A DNA stretch of 64,000 bases from Legionellaceae bacterium (GTDB lineage Bacteria; Pseudomonadota; Gammaproteobacteria; Legionellales; Legionellaceae), in NCBI GenBank assembly GCA_947474165.1, contig CANJHO010000001.1, positions 18-64,017 of the forward strand, written 5' to 3'. The position numbers and the translations under genes were made by a program. The notes beneath the pieces are model-generated. The model ran no database searches and was not told the DNA's origin. It saw nothing but the letters and a program-made list of their open reading frames with translations. This document shows positions 11,390-60,701 of this stretch, in pieces; within the stretch, counting starts at the first letter, position 1; the number at the start of each line of letters is the position of its first letter.

Positions 11390-11407
11390 TATACTGCGCG
11401 CAGCATA
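11390..11407. repeat. Palindrome family copy TATACTGCGCGCAGCATA
   Basis: Matches 17 of 18 positions. Overlaps the left end of the adjacent hairpin element by 4 nt. Confidence 0.8.
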
Positions 11408-11560
11408 CATCCGACATTCCGCACCGGCGTCTTTTTTGCTAAAACTTGAGTAAATTTGAATTTTAAATACTCATTTACGTGCGTGTAAACTGCGCTTTAA
11501 AATTTAAATTTACTCAAGTTTTATCTAAAAAATACTGTGGTGCGGAATGTCGGATACATG
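11404..11560. repeat. 157-bp nearly perfect long hairpin (MITE-like or structured RNA element)
   Basis: Outer arms 11404-11425 and 11539-11560 (22 nt, 2 mismatches). Inner arms 11441-11467 and 11496-11522 (27 nt, 1 mismatch). A further 21-nt copy of the right arm lies at 11656-11676. Confidence 0.75.
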
Positions 11561-11611: not shown

Positions 11612-11731
11612 AAAGAGAATATCTGGCTTTAATCTGCGATCAACCCGACATTATCCTGTGGTGCGGAATGTCGGATCAACGACAGACTGCGTTCGGTACA
11701 AAACCACGGTCTTGTACCACACGCCGTCTGA

Positions 11732-20201: not shown

Positions 20202-20408
20202 AAAGGCAATTAAAGTGGGGATCAGTTATTATTCTGGATAATTGTGCATAGGCCTAGCGAAGAGGTATATGTACAGATATTCCATGTTATAATACTGCGC
20301 ATCAACTAAAATTGACTGTGAGTGTTCATTTTTATATAGTTCTGCACATTAAGAGATGTTGCGCTGCTAAAAATAGTGCCACGCCCCTATAACCTAGGAG
20401 TTTCCCCC

Positions 20409-21689: not shown

Positions 21690-21713
21690 TTAGGATCGGG
21701 CGCCCGATCCTAA
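21690..21713 (+). terminator. Palindromic hairpin after gltA (possible terminator, no T-run)
   Basis: TTAGGATCGGGCGCCCGATCCTAA is a perfect 24-nt palindrome starting 10 nt after the stop. Confidence 0.35.
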
Positions 21714-22007: not shown

Positions 22008-22427
22008 TCAAAGAAATTTCAAACCAAAACGTTCATAATTTTCTAACTTAGCATCATGGCTGACGAATACCATGCTCTGGGATATACACTGCCAAATGAT
22101 GAGCCTATCAAATGGATCATTATGTTTTTCAACCAAAGGCAATTGATAAAAACTTGCAAAAATATCCGGTGTGATTTGTGCTGTCTCAAGACCCATTTTC
22201 GTAGCAAGTGTCGGTAATTCATTAGGTAGCACACCCAATAACGCTAGTTTTCCCAACCGATATTTTAATGAAATTTCCAAGAAACTGATTGAGCTTACTG
22301 AAACCTGATTGTTACAATCTTCAAGCTGTTGGATAGTTTGTGCTGGAAGTTTCTCTGGAGAAAAAATCAACCACAGCAATACATGGGTATCAATAAGAAA
22401 ATTACTCATCTCCAAGTAACTCATCAT
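22008..22427 (-). CDS. vapC: PIN-domain toxin, VapC family
   Basis: FLIDTHVLLWLIFSPEKL N-terminal PIN signature. Overlaps the antitoxin stop; the alternative ATG 22409 gives the classic ATGAGTAA overlap. Confidence 0.8.
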   Translation of the reverse strand: MMSYLEMSNFLIDTHVLLWLIFSPEKLPAQTIQQLEDCNNQVSVSSISFLEISLKYRLGKLALLGVLPNELPTLATKMGLETAQITPDIFASFYQLPLVEKHNDPFDRLIIWQCISQSMVFVSHDAKLENYERFGLKFL

Positions 22428-22650
22428 CTGTCATTTCAAAATTTTTATTCAGCGTATATGATGCGCGGTCTTTCAATATACCGAAAACCCGTGGGTTTGC
22501 ATCCTCCAAAGATTTTTGGTAGGGAATCAACATGGCGACCTTTTTATGATGTCTACCATATTCAATAATGAACATCTCACCATTTTCTCGAACACGGTGT
22601 AATATCTCTGAAAATTCAGCTTTCAGGTGTCCAACTTGTATCGCTTCCAT
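22402..22650 (-). CDS. Phd/YefM-type antitoxin
   Basis: 82 aa. Has the pattern MEAIQVGHLKAEFSEILHRVRENGEMFIIEYGRHHKKVAMLIPY. Lies immediately upstream of the PIN toxin. Confidence 0.75.
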   Translation of the reverse strand: MEAIQVGHLKAEFSEILHRVRENGEMFIIEYGRHHKKVAMLIPYQKSLEDANPRVFGILKDRASYTLNKNFEMTDDELLGDE

Positions 22651-29750: not shown

Positions 29751-30569
29751 TTATATACTGCGCGCGCAATATACGTGGTGATCATTGCATGGAAATTGCC
29801 TTCGCAATGTTCGCAAGTGTTCTAAATCAATATCAGCAACAATAACACCAGGCTCTACTGGTTGCTCTGCTAATATAGTACCCCAAGGTTCGATGATGAG
29901 GCTATGCCCATAAGTGTGACGGCCACTCGCATGCACACCACCTTGGTTCGGTGCTAAAACATAACACAAATTCTCAATCGCTCGTGCGCGCAATAAAATT
30001 TCCCAATGAGCACGTCCAGTGGTTGCTGTAAATGCAGAGGGAATACTGAATAATTCCGCACCTTTTAAAACCAATTGACGATAAAGCTCAGGAAAACGCA
30101 AATCATAACAAACGCTTAACCCAACGCAACCTACCGGCGTATCAACGACAACCGCAATATCCCCACGTTCAATGCTCAGTGATTCTTGATAAGCTTCTTG
30201 TGTTGATACCCCGACATCAAACAGATGAATTTTATCGTAGTGCGCGACAGTGTTCCCCTTCTCATCAAAAACAAAACTGCTTGCTTTGACTTTATCTTTT
30301 GAACATTTTATAGGGATAGTACCGGCAATCATCCAGAGCTTATAACGCTTCGCCAGTTGCCCCACTGCTTGTTGAATCTCGCCCTCGCCATAGGTTTCTG
30401 CGATGAGCAGTTTAGCCTTATCATCGGTTCCCATGAAAGCAAAATTTTCAGGTAAAACCAACAGCTCAGCCCCTGCTTCTTTCGCATCTAAACAAAACTG
30501 GTCAAGTGATTGTAGGTTTTCTTTTACTTGGGCTGAAGAAACCATTTGTAACACGGCGGCTCTAGTCAT
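29751..30569 (-). CDS. Carbon-nitrogen hydrolase (nitrilase superfamily) protein
   Basis: LLVLPENF and GLSVCYDLRFPELY (catalytic Cys) motifs. Start at ATG 30569; the ORF extends to 30623. Confidence 0.8.
   Translation of the reverse strand: MTRAAVLQMVSSAQVKENLQSLDQFCLDAKEAGAELLVLPENFAFMGTDDKAKLLIAETYGEGEIQQAVGQLAKRYKLWMIAGTIPIKCSKDKVKASSFVFDEKGNTVAHYDKIHLFDVGVSTQEAYQESLSIERGDIAVVVDTPVGCVGLSVCYDLRFPELYRQLVLKGAELFSIPSAFTATTGRAHWEILLRARAIENLCYVLAPNQGGVHASGRHTYGHSLIIEPWGTILAEQPVEPGVIVADIDLEHLRTLRRQFPCNDHHVYCARSI
29754..29773. repeat. Palindrome family copy TATACTGCGCGCGCAATATA
   Basis: GC core is expanded by 2 nt and the right arm has 1 mismatch. It encodes the last 7 codons (VYCARSI) of the hydrolase and lies 31-50 nt upstream of the tldD ATG. 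Confidence 0.8.
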
Positions 30570-31577: not shown

Positions 31578-31655
31578 TTAGAGGCAACATCGCGTAATCC
31601 AAGATCTACGTCCAGGATTTATAGTCAAGGATTCCTGGGTTACGCGGCCTGCTTA

Positions 31656-31844
31656 TTATTCAGACTCTAGCTCGCGCAGATGCCGAATCATTTCACGTTC
31701 AAATGCCGCTAAGGCTGCAAAAATACCGAATACTAATTTACCCGCTGCACTCGTGGTATCAATTGCAGCCCCATGTCCTGTCAGTACTTTCAATCCTTTA
31801 TCTCTATGCTGCGCGCGCAGTATACATTGCCACGGCGATTGCAT
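31656..31844 (-). pseudogene. Serine recombinase (resolvase/invertase) fragment
   Basis: AIDTTSAAGKLVFGIFAALAAFEREMI matches the conserved end of the resolvase catalytic domain. The N-terminal catalytic part and the C-terminal HTH are missing. Its upstream end is cut by a palindrome copy. Confidence 0.7.
31805..31824. repeat. Palindrome family copy TATGCTGCGCGCGCAGTATA
   Basis: Near-perfect palindrome with 1 arm mismatch and an expanded GC core. Lies inside the resolvase remnant, 75 nt upstream of the 713-aa ORF. Confidence 0.8.
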
Positions 31845-31898
31845 CGTTTGTCTTATTTGTATAAACTATGGGAAATTTAAAATCATGTAGGTTTAATT

Positions 31899-34040
31899 AT
31901 GTCTGATAATACACTTTTTAATTATCTTAGCGATCGAGCATCAGCACCGGTCATTGATTCCATTGAAAATCTAAGACGTGAGGAAAAAACCAACCGGTCC
32001 GGCATCAGGTATTTTCTGCTTGATATGAAAAAATGCCCAGACGAGGTCATTAAGGGCTTCACCGTAATCAATCACCATATCAGTGTCTACGAACATGGGG
32101 ATGAATATCATTACACGGCTGAATTGACTGACGTGGATGGAGATCAGTTTCGCTTGCATGTCTATTTCAATCATAAAGGTGAGGTCACAAAACTACCTTT
32201 TTTCGAAATCAAAAATGATCAAGATGAGTATATTCATTACGCGGCAGAACAATACGATAAGGCATTAATCAAATTAGCCAAAGACACGACCCAACCTATC
32301 ATTAAAGAATTAAAAGAGGGGATAAAACGTCACATTCAGATACTAGAAACAGCGTACACAACAATAGAGGCTCAGGCTTGTGATTTATCAAGAACCGTAT
32401 CGGAAAATTATGAGGCTTATATCAATAAACTTGATGCTGCCTATCGAGCATCATTAGCGATCATCCCCTTTGCTGATAAGACATCCATTTATACTGTGCG
32501 AGCCAACAGGCTTGAAAAATTGAAAAAGGCTTTTGAGCATCAACACACCATTGAAACACAAACTCGTGTTTTTGAGACTCAGAAATCAGAAGATGATGTG
32601 CAAAGCCCAACTGGTGCTGAGCCTATCAACCCCATCTTCCAGACAGCGCCAACAGTTATACCTATTTATATAGACATTGAAATCAACGAATTAGCTGAAC
32701 GTTTTAAAAAACTGTCAGAAAAAAAGAATGAAGTAGAACAGGCTGAAGAGCTGGCTGATATTCGGGCAAAAACAGTTGAGTTTTTTTTGCGATTAGATTC
32801 GAGTACTACACTCGCCTCTCTGGCATCCTTAGCGCTTTTACAAAAGCTAGACAGTGATACTGCTGTAAAAGGACGCGATCTATACAATAGGTTGCTTATT
32901 ACAAGACATGTTGATGGCTTGAGGTATTTGCCTAATTTCCACCATCTAATCGAGGATAAATATCTTGAGTATGCCTTGGTAAAAAAAGATGATAAATTTT
33001 TAAACTTTGTCATTGAATGTGGCGATTATGATATTAATCATCCCATCACGGTGAGAGGAACACGTTATCTGTCTGCTGCGCATTATTGTTTCGATGCTTA
33101 CACTGATGAAACACCAATGGCTGCATGCCTATCTGTTTTATTAAATCGTGGGGGATCTGCATCATTATTTGTCCCTAACGCTGATGGTTTGCCAATAGCA
33201 TACGCTATGTTATCGAGGGCTGATCATTCTCTAAGAGAAGTAATGTTTTCAAAGTTTCAAAATGACTCACAGGCGATTGCCAACTTTTTGAGAGAATTAA
33301 TTTCAGCACTTGAAGAATACCTAGTTCAAGACCCAGATGACAAAAAAAGAAAGAATAATGAGGTTAAGAGAACGATAGCTAAATCTAAGGAGCAAATTTC
33401 ACAGCTTCAATCCGGCTTAGTATCCCCCCGAGATTTTTCTTTATTTGCCGAAACGGAAGCGGCTTTAAGAGAGCATTTGGGTAAGGAAACAGATATAAAT
33501 AGATTGGATAGCGATCCTGTAATTGTTCAAGAACGAGAAAGAATGATAAAGGCGCTAGATAAATTAACGAAAGTTATCACACCTAAAGAAGCTAGAGCTT
33601 GTAGTCTCAGATCACGGGAGGATATAAAACGACGGTATTCTCAGCTTAAAGAAAAATCCTTTCAAGGCGTGGAGTACCCAAAAATAAGAAGGGAAGCCAT
33701 CGCGGAAATAGTAGATCATAGGAAGCAGTACGAAAGAGCATACGAATTACAGATGCTGAAAAAAGAGATTCAAAGATACCCTATGGATGCTAAGACGGGT
33801 AAGCCAGGTAAAAACCAACAACGTCTCTTAACAAGAGCAACGCAATTAAATGAAGAAACAATAGCGTTTTATAGAAAGTATTATCCTAATGAAAAAGACG
33901 TTGAAAAAGGGAAAAAAATGCTGGATATGATAGTGAATATGATGGTGGATATAATGAAGGAGCGTATCATGGCATCACCTTCTGAATATATACCTGATTT
34001 AGAAGAGGATGGTGCATCTTCTTTTGATTTGGCACTATAA
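31899..34040 (+). CDS. Hypothetical protein (713 aa), coiled-coil rich with ankyrin-like segment; effector candidate
   Basis: Long ATG ORF. Central segment (about 32950-33230) follows a degenerate ankyrin pattern (RGTRYLSAAHY...LSVLLNRGGSASLFVPNADGLPIAYAML). C-terminal half is K/E-rich and helical, with an acidic tail PDLEEDGASSFDLAL. Confidence 0.75.
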   Translation: MSDNTLFNYLSDRASAPVIDSIENLRREEKTNRSGIRYFLLDMKKCPDEVIKGFTVINHHISVYEHGDEYHYTAELTDVDGDQFRLHVYFNHKGEVTKLPFFEIKNDQDEYIHYAAEQYDKALIKLAKDTTQPIIKELKEGIKRHIQILETAYTTIEAQACDLSRTVSENYEAYINKLDAAYRASLAIIPFADKTSIYTVRANRLEKLKKAFEHQHTIETQTRVFETQKSEDDVQSPTGAEPINPIFQTAPTVIPIYIDIEINELAERFKKLSEKKNEVEQAEELADIRAKTVEFFLRLDSSTTLASLASLALLQKLDSDTAVKGRDLYNRLLITRHVDGLRYLPNFHHLIEDKYLEYALVKKDDKFLNFVIECGDYDINHPITVRGTRYLSAAHYCFDAYTDETPMAACLSVLLNRGGSASLFVPNADGLPIAYAMLSRADHSLREVMFSKFQNDSQAIANFLRELISALEEYLVQDPDDKKRKNNEVKRTIAKSKEQISQLQSGLVSPRDFSLFAETEAALREHLGKETDINRLDSDPVIVQERERMIKALDKLTKVITPKEARACSLRSREDIKRRYSQLKEKSFQGVEYPKIRREAIAEIVDHRKQYERAYELQMLKKEIQRYPMDAKTGKPGKNQQRLLTRATQLNEETIAFYRKYYPNEKDVEKGKKMLDMIVNMMVDIMKERIMASPSEYIPDLEEDGASSFDLAL

Positions 34041-34206
34041 AAAAGGGGGAATACAATGAAAAAATTCGGATCTACTTTTAAACACAGGGGGTTCTACGTA
34101 AGCATTTTTCTGATTGAAAAACATTGAAAGATAAGTATGAATTTGGATGAAGAAAACGATAGATACTTCATGCGGCCTGCTTACATGATGATCTTGACCT
34201 GCTTCC

Positions 34207-37865: not shown

Positions 37866-37947
37866 AATGTTGAAGTTATTCAGAAGCCTAAGAAATCTTC
37901 TAAATAACTTCAACATTATTCCCTTCTCCCCGAACACGGGGAGAAGG
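37866..37947. repeat. Two adjacent strong hairpins (REP-like) between divergent pdxJ and pilin genes
   Basis: Hairpin A has 15-bp arms AATGTTGAAGTTATT (37866-37880) and 37903-37917. Hairpin B is CCTTCTCCCCG-AACA-CGGGGAGAAGG (37922-37947). Confidence 0.75.
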
Positions 37948-37978
37948 TGCCCGTTGGGCGGATGAGGGGCTCTTGAAC

Positions 37979-38002
37979 AGATATACTGCGCGCAGTATAT
38001 CT
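37979..38002. repeat. Perfect 24-bp palindrome AGATATACTGCGCGCAGTATATCT (best copy of the family)
   Basis: Exact self-complementarity over 24 nt. Lies 53 nt upstream of the pilin ATG. Confidence 0.9.
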
Positions 38003-38054: not shown

Positions 38055-38507
38055 ATGAGCCAACCCCCAAATGTTAATAAAGGATTCTCTCTGATTGAGT
38101 TATTAGTAGTCCTTTCTATTACGGGCATTCTTTGTGCCATAATCTATCCAGGATACCGAGATACCATTACTCGTACCCATCGTAGTGATGGTCAAACAGC
38201 CCTTCTAGATTTAGCCATCCGAATGGAGAATTATTATACCAAAAACAACACCTATAAAACGGCGACCATTGGCCAAGGCACATCGACCGACGTATTAGTC
38301 CATGCCACATCCCCAGAAGGCTTTTATTTATTAAGCCTCTCTAAACTCACTCACTCGACCTATACGCTAAAGGCAACCCCTACCCCTTCACAAGCCAATG
38401 CCGATAGCCGTTGCCAATCATTGACCTTTAATAGTCTAGGTATTAAGGGAATTACTACCGGCCCCGCAGGCAACCCAACAGCGCCTGCTTCAACCTGTTG
38501 GTCATGA
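38055..38507 (+). CDS. pilE: Type IV pilin (PilE-like)
   Basis: Leader MSQPPNVNKG followed by FSLIELLVVLSITGILCAIIYPGY. C-terminal Cys pair. The ORF opens at TTG 38025, but ATG 38055 gives a canonical short leader. Confidence 0.85.
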   Translation: MSQPPNVNKGFSLIELLVVLSITGILCAIIYPGYRDTITRTHRSDGQTALLDLAIRMENYYTKNNTYKTATIGQGTSTDVLVHATSPEGFYLLSLSKLTHSTYTLKATPTPSQANADSRCQSLTFNSLGIKGITTGPAGNPTAPASTCWS

Positions 38508-40811: not shown

Positions 40812-40821
40812 GCGCAGTATA
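40812..40821. repeat. Half copy (GCGCAGTATA) of the palindrome family
   Basis: Right arm only. Lies between the convergent ProQ-like and ubiG stops. A degenerate copy of hairpin B lies at 40834-40853. Confidence 0.4.
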
Positions 40822-60567: not shown

Positions 60568-60701
60568 TTGGAATAAAGAAATTTGGGTTATCCATTACTT
60601 GCAAGCCAGCGAGAAATAAATTGTGAACTCGATAATAGTTATTCTATTACCGAGTTTCAAAAAGTGCGCCATGGCAAAAATAACAAGACAAAAACCGCAG
60701 T

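Follow-up and report, generated by a model that had tools for sequence, protein, structure and literature searches.

A family of short palindromes is dispersed through the 64,000-nucleotide stretch of Legionellaceae DNA analysed here (the window), and we propose, with a probability of roughly two in three, that it is a lineage-restricted, insertion-polymorphic and non-autonomous mobile repeat of REP-like character, driven in trans by a putative enzyme. Comparison with relatives shows that whole palindromes are added, in a lineage-specific burst, to non-coding DNA or to the very 3' tips of genes, that their positions differ between sister species, and that sequence variants pass from copy to copy. 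The family is real and previously undescribed, and is best classed with the small dispersed extragenic palindromes.

The palindrome family in the window

The family has the consensus (C)TATACTG(CG)1-2CAGTATA(G) and is 18-24 bp long and almost perfectly symmetric. Its best copies extend to GATATAC...GTATATC, and otherwise the flanks add only a weak C...G extension. One arm remains perfect in every degenerate copy, the break in the half copies falling at the CG core (Table 1). Similarity between copies is limited to 18-24 bp, or to 32 bp in one variant; an all-against-all BLAST of 300-nt flanks revealed no longer element around the palindrome, nothing being shared between loci beyond it. No GTAG or CGTC head is present in the palindrome or its flanks, the consensus being fully symmetric, and no doublets of the REPIN or BIME kind occur, all copies being singletons of which the closest pair lies 2 kb apart. 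The flank motif CTAAGC, found beside copies three times, was dismissed as non-significant after multiple testing.

Table 1. Copies of the palindrome in the window and their gene context
Copy	Sequence	Position	Strand	Context and remarks
Perfect 24-bp palindrome	AGATATACTGCGCGCAGTATATCT	37979-38002	.	Exact 18-mer core, in no other window copy; gap between the divergent pdxJ and type IV pilin genes
Full copy	TATACTGCGCGCGGTATATA	6412-6431	.	One arm mismatch; convergent orphan giant ORF / ubiA gap, 1 nt past the ubiA stop codon
Full copy	TATACTGCGCGCAGCATA	11390-11407	.	Between rpsA and lapA, with lapA 43 nt downstream
Full copy, 20 nt, (CG)3 core	TATACTGCGCGCGCAATATA	29754-29773	.	Last codons of the CN hydrolase gene (YCARSI); 30 nt upstream of tldD
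Full copy	TATGCTGCGCGCGCAGTATA	31805-31824	.	At the 5' truncation of a resolvase remnant, in an inserted islet; an orphan 713-aa ORF begins 74 nt downstream
Full copy	TATGACCGCGCGCAGTATA	60703-60721	.	Core of the 32-nt variant AAACCGCAGTTTATGACCGCGCGCAGTATAAT at 60692-60723; ABC-transporter ORF reads through; ABM/ABC convergent gap
Half copy	CGCGCGCAGTATA	713-725	.	Core with a single perfect arm; in front of the giant ORF, 50 nt past the E2 acyltransferase gene
Half copy	GCGCAGTATA	40812-40821	.	Convergent ProQ-like gene / ubiG gap
Doubtful degenerate half copy	TATAATACTGCGC	20289-20300	.	76 nt upstream of gltA; family membership uncertain

A sequence-only reading of the window had already listed the perfect 24-bp palindrome along with the other full copies, six in all, and two half copies. 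We confirmed the sequence of the perfect copy and found all eight elements where that reading had placed them, with two sets of ends now put at 6412-6431 and 713-725; the gene contexts it gave are correct. Only 1 nt separates the copy at 11390 from an unrelated MITE-like element of 147 bp, at the terminal inverted repeat of the latter. The truncated resolvase remnant that the sequence-only reading described is real as well: the gene is 5'-truncated (PF00239 positions 88-130) and ends at the copy at 31805, in an islet between the Bax1-I and POR genes. A second Legionellaceae repeat (37925-37969) lies 10 nt from the copy at 37979, and a composite of the palindrome and this repeat was rejected as inconsistent across loci. 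An Rfam search of the window reported one tRNA and nothing else, which leaves no known RNA family as the identity of the palindrome.

Enrichment and extragenic placement

With up to three mismatches allowed, the 18-mer has 4 matches in the window against 0.00 in 100 dinucleotide-preserving shuffles, so the recurrence does exceed chance, as had been supposed. The arm-plus-core 9-mers TATACTGCG and CGCAGTATA occur 9 times in the window, every time within the eight elements, and the half site is therefore not found alone. About 90% of the window is coding on a simple ORF map, and all eight elements are intergenic or lie in the final 6-7 codons of a gene; by our own arithmetic the chance of such a placement for eight elements is ~0.114^8, or ~3e-8. 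The original statement that the copies stay out of conserved coding sequence stands to this extent and requires one amendment, since those at 29754 and 60703 are read through by the carbon-nitrogen (CN) hydrolase and ABC-transporter ORFs.

Copies occur at a density of ~1 per 8-10 kb and in convergent, tandem and divergent gaps alike, with three of the eight window copies between convergent genes (giant ORF/ubiA, ABM/ABC and ProQ/ubiG). A stop codon is no more than 11 nt away from about one third of all copies. The two positional classes first distinguished, at 3' ends and upstream of start codons, amount to no more than copies landing in every kind of intergenic gap.

Different positions in relatives

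The window carries Legionella-like genes, including those for a LidA-like protein, a ProQ/FinO-domain protein, a DOT1-like methyltransferase and a CD39-type NTPase, and the best named relatives of its CN hydrolase and S1 proteins come from named Legionella species. The nearest CN hydrolase among 5.8 billion proteins is 80% identical and that of the best named species, L. bononiensis, 68%, which implies that the species is undescribed in the collections searched; at this best match of 80%, those collections held no closer relatives that would provide exact empty sites.

A scan of metagenome contigs with TldD yielded 32 Legionella relatives (TldD 68-88% identical, 338 kb), most of which retain the CN hydrolase-tldD-mfd and Bax1-I order, and the 338 kb around their tldD genes contain no copy of the palindrome. 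Likewise, no copy occurs in 72.5 kb around rpsA in four relatives (S1 95-97% identical), in which the order gyrA-serC-aroA-cmk-rpsA-lapA-lapB-pyrF-udg-ubiC-ubiA is kept. At the density of the window, ~38 copies would be expected in these ~410 kb by our own arithmetic, versus 0 found. The individual junctions agree. The element is missing from the CN hydrolase/tldD junction in all relatives compared; the rpsA-lapA spacer measures 81-82 bp in L119 and L120, where it holds the rpsA terminator only and no copy, versus 385 bp in the window; and the 3' flanks of ubiA in L117-L119 are unrelated to that of the window and have no copy.

The two closest relatives found carry the family, at sites other than those of the window. 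In L112 (CN hydrolase 76% identical) the copy GATATACTGCGCGCAGTATATC lies 1 nt after the yjdM stop codon, and in L114 and L115 (CN hydrolase 80% identical) the copy TATACTGCGCGCGGTCATA lies between tldD and mfd. These relatives are without the copies of the window, the CN hydrolase/tldD junctions of all three having no element; conversely, no copy is present at the tldD/mfd junction of the window or of L112, nor at yjdM in the window. As judged from the aligned junctions, the comparison shows insertion polymorphism between sister species, and the presence/absence differences that had been raised for orthologous intergenic regions are found at the tldD, rpsA-lapA and ubiA sites and in L112, L114 and L115.

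Insertion at the CN hydrolase/tldD junction and a shared 32-nt variant

The evidence for insertion as a unit comes from the single filled/empty pair that can be aligned. From the conserved His-His codons of the CN hydrolase gene, the tldD ATG is reached after 51 nt in the window, versus 31 nt in L114 and 33 nt in L112. Subtracting the 20-nt palindrome from the window spacer leaves 31 nt, of which 19 positions match L114 without a gap. Removal of the 20 nt thus restores colinearity with L114, and the palindrome accordingly arrived as a unit at a TA-rich spot. The CN hydrolase ends in ...HH(V/I)L... in relatives versus ...HHVYCARSI in the window, and so insertion of the palindrome has changed the C-terminus of the protein. 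The tail ...LYCARS* of the ABC-transporter ORF is likewise supplied by the copy at 60703. No direct repeats were found beyond the palindrome, a 2-nt TA duplication being indistinguishable from the TATA ends of the element itself.

Two species share a 32-nt variant, AAACCGCAG(T/A)TTATGACCGCGCGCAGTATAAT, with 31 of 32 nt identical at loci unrelated to each other, its second site being the tldD/mfd junction of L114 and L115. Such identity at non-homologous loci is most readily accounted for if a shared variant was copied. Both Logan contigs, L114 and L115, stop 10-11 nt past the element, where we infer that the repeat broke the assembly. Among the possibilities first listed for the palindrome, that of a REP-like repeat or mobile element is supported by these comparisons: the same sites are empty in relatives, other sites are filled in sisters, one junction differs by the length of the palindrome, and the 32-nt variant sits at unrelated loci.

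Distribution beyond close relatives

The exact 18-mer was found in 30 stretches among one-genome-per-species contigs (596 Gb). Nineteen of them belong to about 10 Legionellales-type metagenome-assembled genomes (MAGs) of 34-46% GC, with at most 4 copies per MAG, and no named Legionella species was seen among the exact matches. All 19 of these copies are intergenic, and their flanking genes are unrelated housekeeping genes, including bamA, skp, fabZ, holB, gyrA, recR/ybaB, ppa, atpB and rpsF. Within the bamA-skp operon, L002 and L025 have their copies in different gaps, and in L019 a copy lies 16 nt upstream of a pilin-like gene.

The matches outside the Legionellales number 11, versus ~9 expected by chance in 596 Gb (uniform model, our own arithmetic). 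Four copies in three MAGs of termite-gut Tannerella, between ordinary genes and with unrelated flanks, clearly exceed chance and are the sole non-Legionellales matches to do so; two copies in Victivallales are paralogous. Phage contigs gave one match, an extended version of 26-30 bp, which is about the chance expectation, and a plasmid collection gave none. The distribution is patchy, the family being abundant here, present in the two nearest relatives, missing from most Legionella and found again in distant lineages.

Alternative explanations

A symmetric site of 18-24 bp would suit the operator of a dimeric transcription factor, here one controlling a regulon of pilin, tldD, lapA, the 713-aa ORF and others. 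Start codons follow four of the copies at a distance of 30-75 nt, the exact 18-mer is kept across distant Legionellales, and the pilin-like gene of L019 provides a second genome with a copy before such a gene. However, the same promoters in relatives are without the site, the 410 kb devoid of copies taking in tldD, lapA and two loci where pilin homologues occur; in addition to the three copies between convergent genes, a fourth follows the 3' end of the E2 gene, and two lie within ORF 3' ends. The genes flanking the 19 other loci share no theme, the bamA-skp copies of L002 and L025 occupy differing gaps of one operon, and both the 32-nt variant and the insertion of matching length point to pasting rather than evolution in place. 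With the equivalent positions empty in relatives and the flanking genes unrelated, we rejected this proposal of the sequence-only reading as quite unlikely; the neighbours are assorted housekeeping genes and therefore form no regulon. The same reading had offered a symmetric promoter module, in which each TATACT arm would act as a -10 box with a GC-rich discriminator and transcription would start in both directions. TATACT does match TATAAT at 5 of 6 positions and is followed by GCGCGC, and several copies are upstream of genes, but a -35 match of at least 4/6 at 16-18 nt accompanies 19% of arms versus 15% of nearby control positions, and the one arm flagged by a promoter scan takes its "-35" from conserved CN hydrolase codons. 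Copies in convergent gaps would yield antisense RNA only, the arm retained by the half copies at 713 and 40812 would transcribe back into the 3' end of the upstream gene, and the equivalent promoters of relatives have no element; without enriched -35 boxes the module is barely credible and was discarded. Hardly more plausible is a DNA-uptake sequence for natural transformation, like the DUS of Neisseria or the USS of Haemophilus but paired as inverted repeats. Legionella is naturally competent, neisserial DUS often stand as inverted pairs after genes, and the pilin gene downstream of the best copy has a match to the Pfam model ComP_DUS; this match, however, reflects the general pilin fold and is no evidence of sequence specificity. 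DUS and USS occur at ~1 per kb, against ~1 per 8-10 kb for the palindrome, whose half-site 9-mers are never alone and never in coding DNA, and most relatives are without the element. Sequence selectivity is not reported for DNA uptake in L. pneumophila (PMC8897410), and on this ground and the lack of isolated half sites the uptake explanation was rejected.

Two further explanations were considered. The element might owe its retention mainly to the RNA hairpin, which would stabilise 3' ends, serve as a processing site or terminate transcription, roles proposed for some REPs. The perfect copy would form a 10-bp stem with a CGCG loop (-11.5 kcal/mol, z = -4.3), and about a third of the copies have a stop codon within 11 nt. 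In the three imperfect copies between two ORFs of the same strand (11390, 29754 and 31805), the mismatch is a G-U wobble on the ORF strand and an A-C clash on the other, so that the ORF strand folds 3.9-5.5 kcal/mol better (-6.6 versus -2.4, -8.8 versus -3.3 and -9.6 versus -5.7 kcal/mol). This pattern is suggestive and may stem from selection on RNA structure or equally from transcription-linked mutation bias; with n = 3 (p ~0.125) it proves nothing. Against a hairpin function, most stems are weak (-5 to -9 kcal/mol; copies other than the perfect one fold at -5 to -10 kcal/mol), copies also occupy divergent promoter gaps (37979, L008, L019 and L020), and the arrival of identical sequences at new sites would be left unexplained. 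An intrinsic terminator was rejected, as no copy has a T-run after the stem and the terminator scan reports none of the copies. Of the RNA 3' hairpin originally suggested, a possible side effect is what survives, and as the main reason for the element it is improbable. The palindrome could instead be a crossover site, or the leftover, of site-specific recombination that moves accessory or effector cassettes, with the half copies as hybrid junctions. The orphan giant ORF, for which no homologues were found, is bracketed by the half copy at 713 and the full copy at 6412; one perfect arm is always retained and the half copies break at the CG core; the copy at 31805 lies exactly at the truncation of the serine-recombinase gene within an inserted islet; and the crossover sites of small serine recombinases resemble an 11-2-11 layout. 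Most copies, though, lie between core genes (CN hydrolase/tldD and rpsA/lapA here, bamA/skp, recR and gyrA elsewhere), the event at CN hydrolase/tldD added the palindrome alone and no cargo, and there is no resolvase near any copy other than 31805, which also disposes of the resolvase as the driver of the family. We consider such a recombination site very unlikely.

Proposed mechanism

We therefore return to the REP-like repeat mobilised in trans. A trans-acting enzyme encoded elsewhere in the genome would recognise the palindrome, either as a single-stranded DNA hairpin or as a symmetric duplex site, and paste copies of it into AT-rich (TA) positions; the enzyme could be a RAYT (REP-associated tyrosine transposase)/IS200-type HUH transposase or another transposase or recombinase. 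Copies landing in genes would be lost by selection, and copies would persist only where genes stay intact. Once inserted, the element would be transcribed within the neighbouring mRNAs, where it can fold into a hairpin of 7-10 bp. Hairpin formation and the rewritten protein C-termini would be side effects of insertion and not the cause of the element's existence. No transposase, RAYT or recombinase was found beside the copies in the window, at the 30 loci of the exact 18-mer (up to 8 kb) or in L112-L120; the best 25 of 73 Pfam families among 67 flanking ORFs include no transposase, and no multi-copy protein was found near copies.

REPs are usually species-specific, and the conservation of the exact 18-mer across Legionellales MAGs of 34-46% GC and in Tannerella speaks against a REP-like repeat; an identical 18-mer in distant lineages could point to a conserved binding protein instead. 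In a bolder version of mobility, which we regard as unlikely, the palindrome of 18-20 bp would alone make up a mobile element, smaller than any known, and a symmetric enzyme would insert it intact at TA sites; the gene for this enzyme would move horizontally among bacteria sharing protist or amoeba-associated niches. A horizontally moving enzyme gene would explain why the 18-mer is dispersed in several Legionellales and termite-gut Tannerella and missing from most Legionella. A further point against the REP-like mobile repeat is that, to our knowledge, a unit of 18-20 bp is shorter than any element with demonstrated transposition.

Significance

The palindromes add an undescribed family of small dispersed repeats for Legionella, where we found none reported; a literature search turned up neither the 18-mer nor any combination of "REP-associated tyrosine" with Legionella. 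They show that such elements are active in remodelling both the DNA between genes and the C-termini of proteins in a species that is uncultured or undescribed. The copies mark recent insertions, which could be used for strain typing, and they probably cause assembly breaks. They are also a warning that recurrent palindromes near genes are not automatically operators or promoters. The family breaks several rules of classical REPs in its perfect symmetry, the absence of a GTAG tag, its singletons and the same sequence in distant lineages, and finding its driver could thus reveal a new way of mobilising very short DNA.

Comparison with known repeat families

The REP/RAYT systems of E. coli, Pseudomonas and Stenotrophomonas resemble the Legionella palindrome in being short extragenic palindromes of high local density, lineage-specific and differently placed between species, which often directly follow stop codons and may form a hairpin in mRNA. 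REPs, however, are ~21-40 bp long with an imperfect or bulged stem and a GTAG or CGTC head, whereas the Legionella palindrome has 18-24 bp, a perfect and fully symmetric stem and neither head; RAYT/IS200-type enzymes use both the tag and the bulged stem. REPs form REPIN or BIME doublets and the Legionella palindrome only singletons; RAYT is found with classical REPs, whereas none was seen near the palindrome within the regions searched above (window, 30 loci up to 8 kb, L112-L120); and, unlike REPs, the palindrome recurs as an identical 18-mer in distant lineages. It is REP-like in behaviour and should not be filed as a REP/RAYT member, because the GTAG/CGTC head, the imperfect stem and the doublets are all missing.

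The cyanobacterial HIP1 (GCGATCGC) is likewise a very short, perfect, GC-cored, over-represented and lineage-restricted palindrome, the mechanism of which is debated. It measures 8-10 bp, is abundant inside genes and arises by point substitution, whereas the Legionella palindrome is strictly extragenic and arrives as a unit. Correia elements (CREE) have TATA ends, insert into TA-rich DNA, are dispersed between genes and are transcribed as hairpins. They are 100-155 bp long, with 26-bp terminal inverted repeats and an internal region, in contrast to the two abutted 9-10 nt arms of the Legionella palindrome. The TATA ends, the apparent insertion at TA-rich sites, the intergenic dispersal and the hairpin transcripts are nevertheless features that the palindrome has in common with them and with other TA-targeting MITEs (for MITEs in general, PMC5896051). 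Classification as a MITE was rejected, as the palindrome is far too short for an element of 50-500 bp with terminal inverted repeats around an internal region.

The small form of QMITE2 in Coxiella burnetii is described as REP-like, without terminal inverted repeats or direct repeats; it occupies 3' UTRs and intergenic DNA, extends over the final bases of ORFs and occurs also outside its host lineage (PMC5896051). QMITE2 is much longer, carries a GTAG REP and is a target of IS1111 (PMC5896051). It has no sequence similarity to the Legionella palindrome. In its placement, its overlap with gene ends and its occurrence beyond the host lineage, the small form is the nearest analogue of the palindrome within the order (PMC5896051).

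Palindrome variants in other genomes

Three MAGs of termite-gut Tannerella, with a GC content of 49-58%, carry the exact 18-mer core of the palindrome at four intergenic sites in all, a number that exceeds chance; the flanks of these sites are unrelated, and the neighbouring genes include those for asparagine synthase, a metallophosphoesterase and a TonB-dependent receptor. In the closest relative, two independent Logan contigs (L114 and L115) both stop 10-11 nt beyond a variant of the palindrome, suggesting that the element has enough copies in that genome to interrupt k-mer assembly. The single match to an extended form, on a phage-like contig, is about what chance would give. In one Legionellaceae MAG (L022) the 18-mer is the centre of a longer perfect palindrome, and the element looks as if it had been inserted at the tip of a pre-existing hairpin.

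Copies of the palindrome precede type IV pilin-like genes in both the window and L019, a Legionellales MAG. These two genes, from different genomes, are non-orthologous, and the pilin homologues in the relatives L053 and L061 have no copy of the palindrome, so the association is probably a coincidence.

Other repeats, inserted sequence and orphan genes

A second repeat family, CCCTTCTCCCC-N5-GGGGAGAAGGTGCC..GGGCGGATGAGGGG, which forms a GC-rich hairpin followed by a tail, is common to several Legionellaceae genomes. The rpsA-lapA spacer measures 385 bp in the window versus 81 bp in relatives, an enlargement due together to a MITE-like unit, a solo third copy of its terminal repeat and the palindrome; the motif of this terminal repeat, ATCCGACATTCCGCACC, was found in none of the 121 compared loci. 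The Bax1-I and POR (2-oxoacid:ferredoxin oxidoreductase) genes, direct neighbours in relatives, are separated in the window by an islet that carries a resolvase remnant and an ORF of 713 aa; this ORF matches no Pfam family and lacks a counterpart in the relatives' loci.

A search of 5.8 billion proteins gave no homologue of the giant ORF at E<=1e-10, and the ORF contains no Pfam domain; flanked by a half copy of the palindrome upstream and a full copy downstream, it may encode an orphan effector. A further perfect palindrome, unrelated to the REP-like family, lies directly 3' of the gltA stop codon. The PIN-domain ORF and the small upstream ORF that overlaps it may constitute a toxin-antitoxin pair.

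Coordinates of the repeats and associated features
Feature	Sequence	Position	Remarks
Palindrome variant	L114	3205-3233	
Palindrome variant	L115	3091-3120	
Extended palindrome ATAATATACTGCGCGCAGTATATTAT	L121	3855-3884	IMG/VR, 37% GC
34-bp palindrome ggctcgacTATACTGCGCGCAGTATAgtcgagcc	L022	3830-3863	between convergent genes
18-mer, Tannerella	L009	4477	
18-mer, Tannerella	L011	4467	
18-mer, Tannerella	L013	210	
18-mer, Tannerella	L014	192	
Second family	window	37925-37969	10 nt from perfect palindrome
Second family	L026	about 7450-7506 and 7619-7680	
Second family	L030	about 4690-4745	
Second family	L040	about 7910-7966	
MITE-like unit, 147 bp	window	11409-11555	17-nt terminal inverted repeats flanking long AT-rich hairpin
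Solo 17-nt repeat	window	11660-11676	
Pilin-like gene	window	38055-38507	palindrome 52 nt upstream of start
Pilin-like gene	L019	5865-6320	palindrome 16 nt upstream of start
Islet	window	31578-34200	
Resolvase remnant	window	31659-31805	minus strand; covers just positions 88-130 of PF00239
Giant ORF	window	1263-6353	about 1,691-1,696 aa
24-bp palindrome TTAGGATCGGGCGCCCGATCCTAA	window	21690-21713	
PIN-domain ORF	window	22008-22427	minus strand
Small ORF	window	22402-22650
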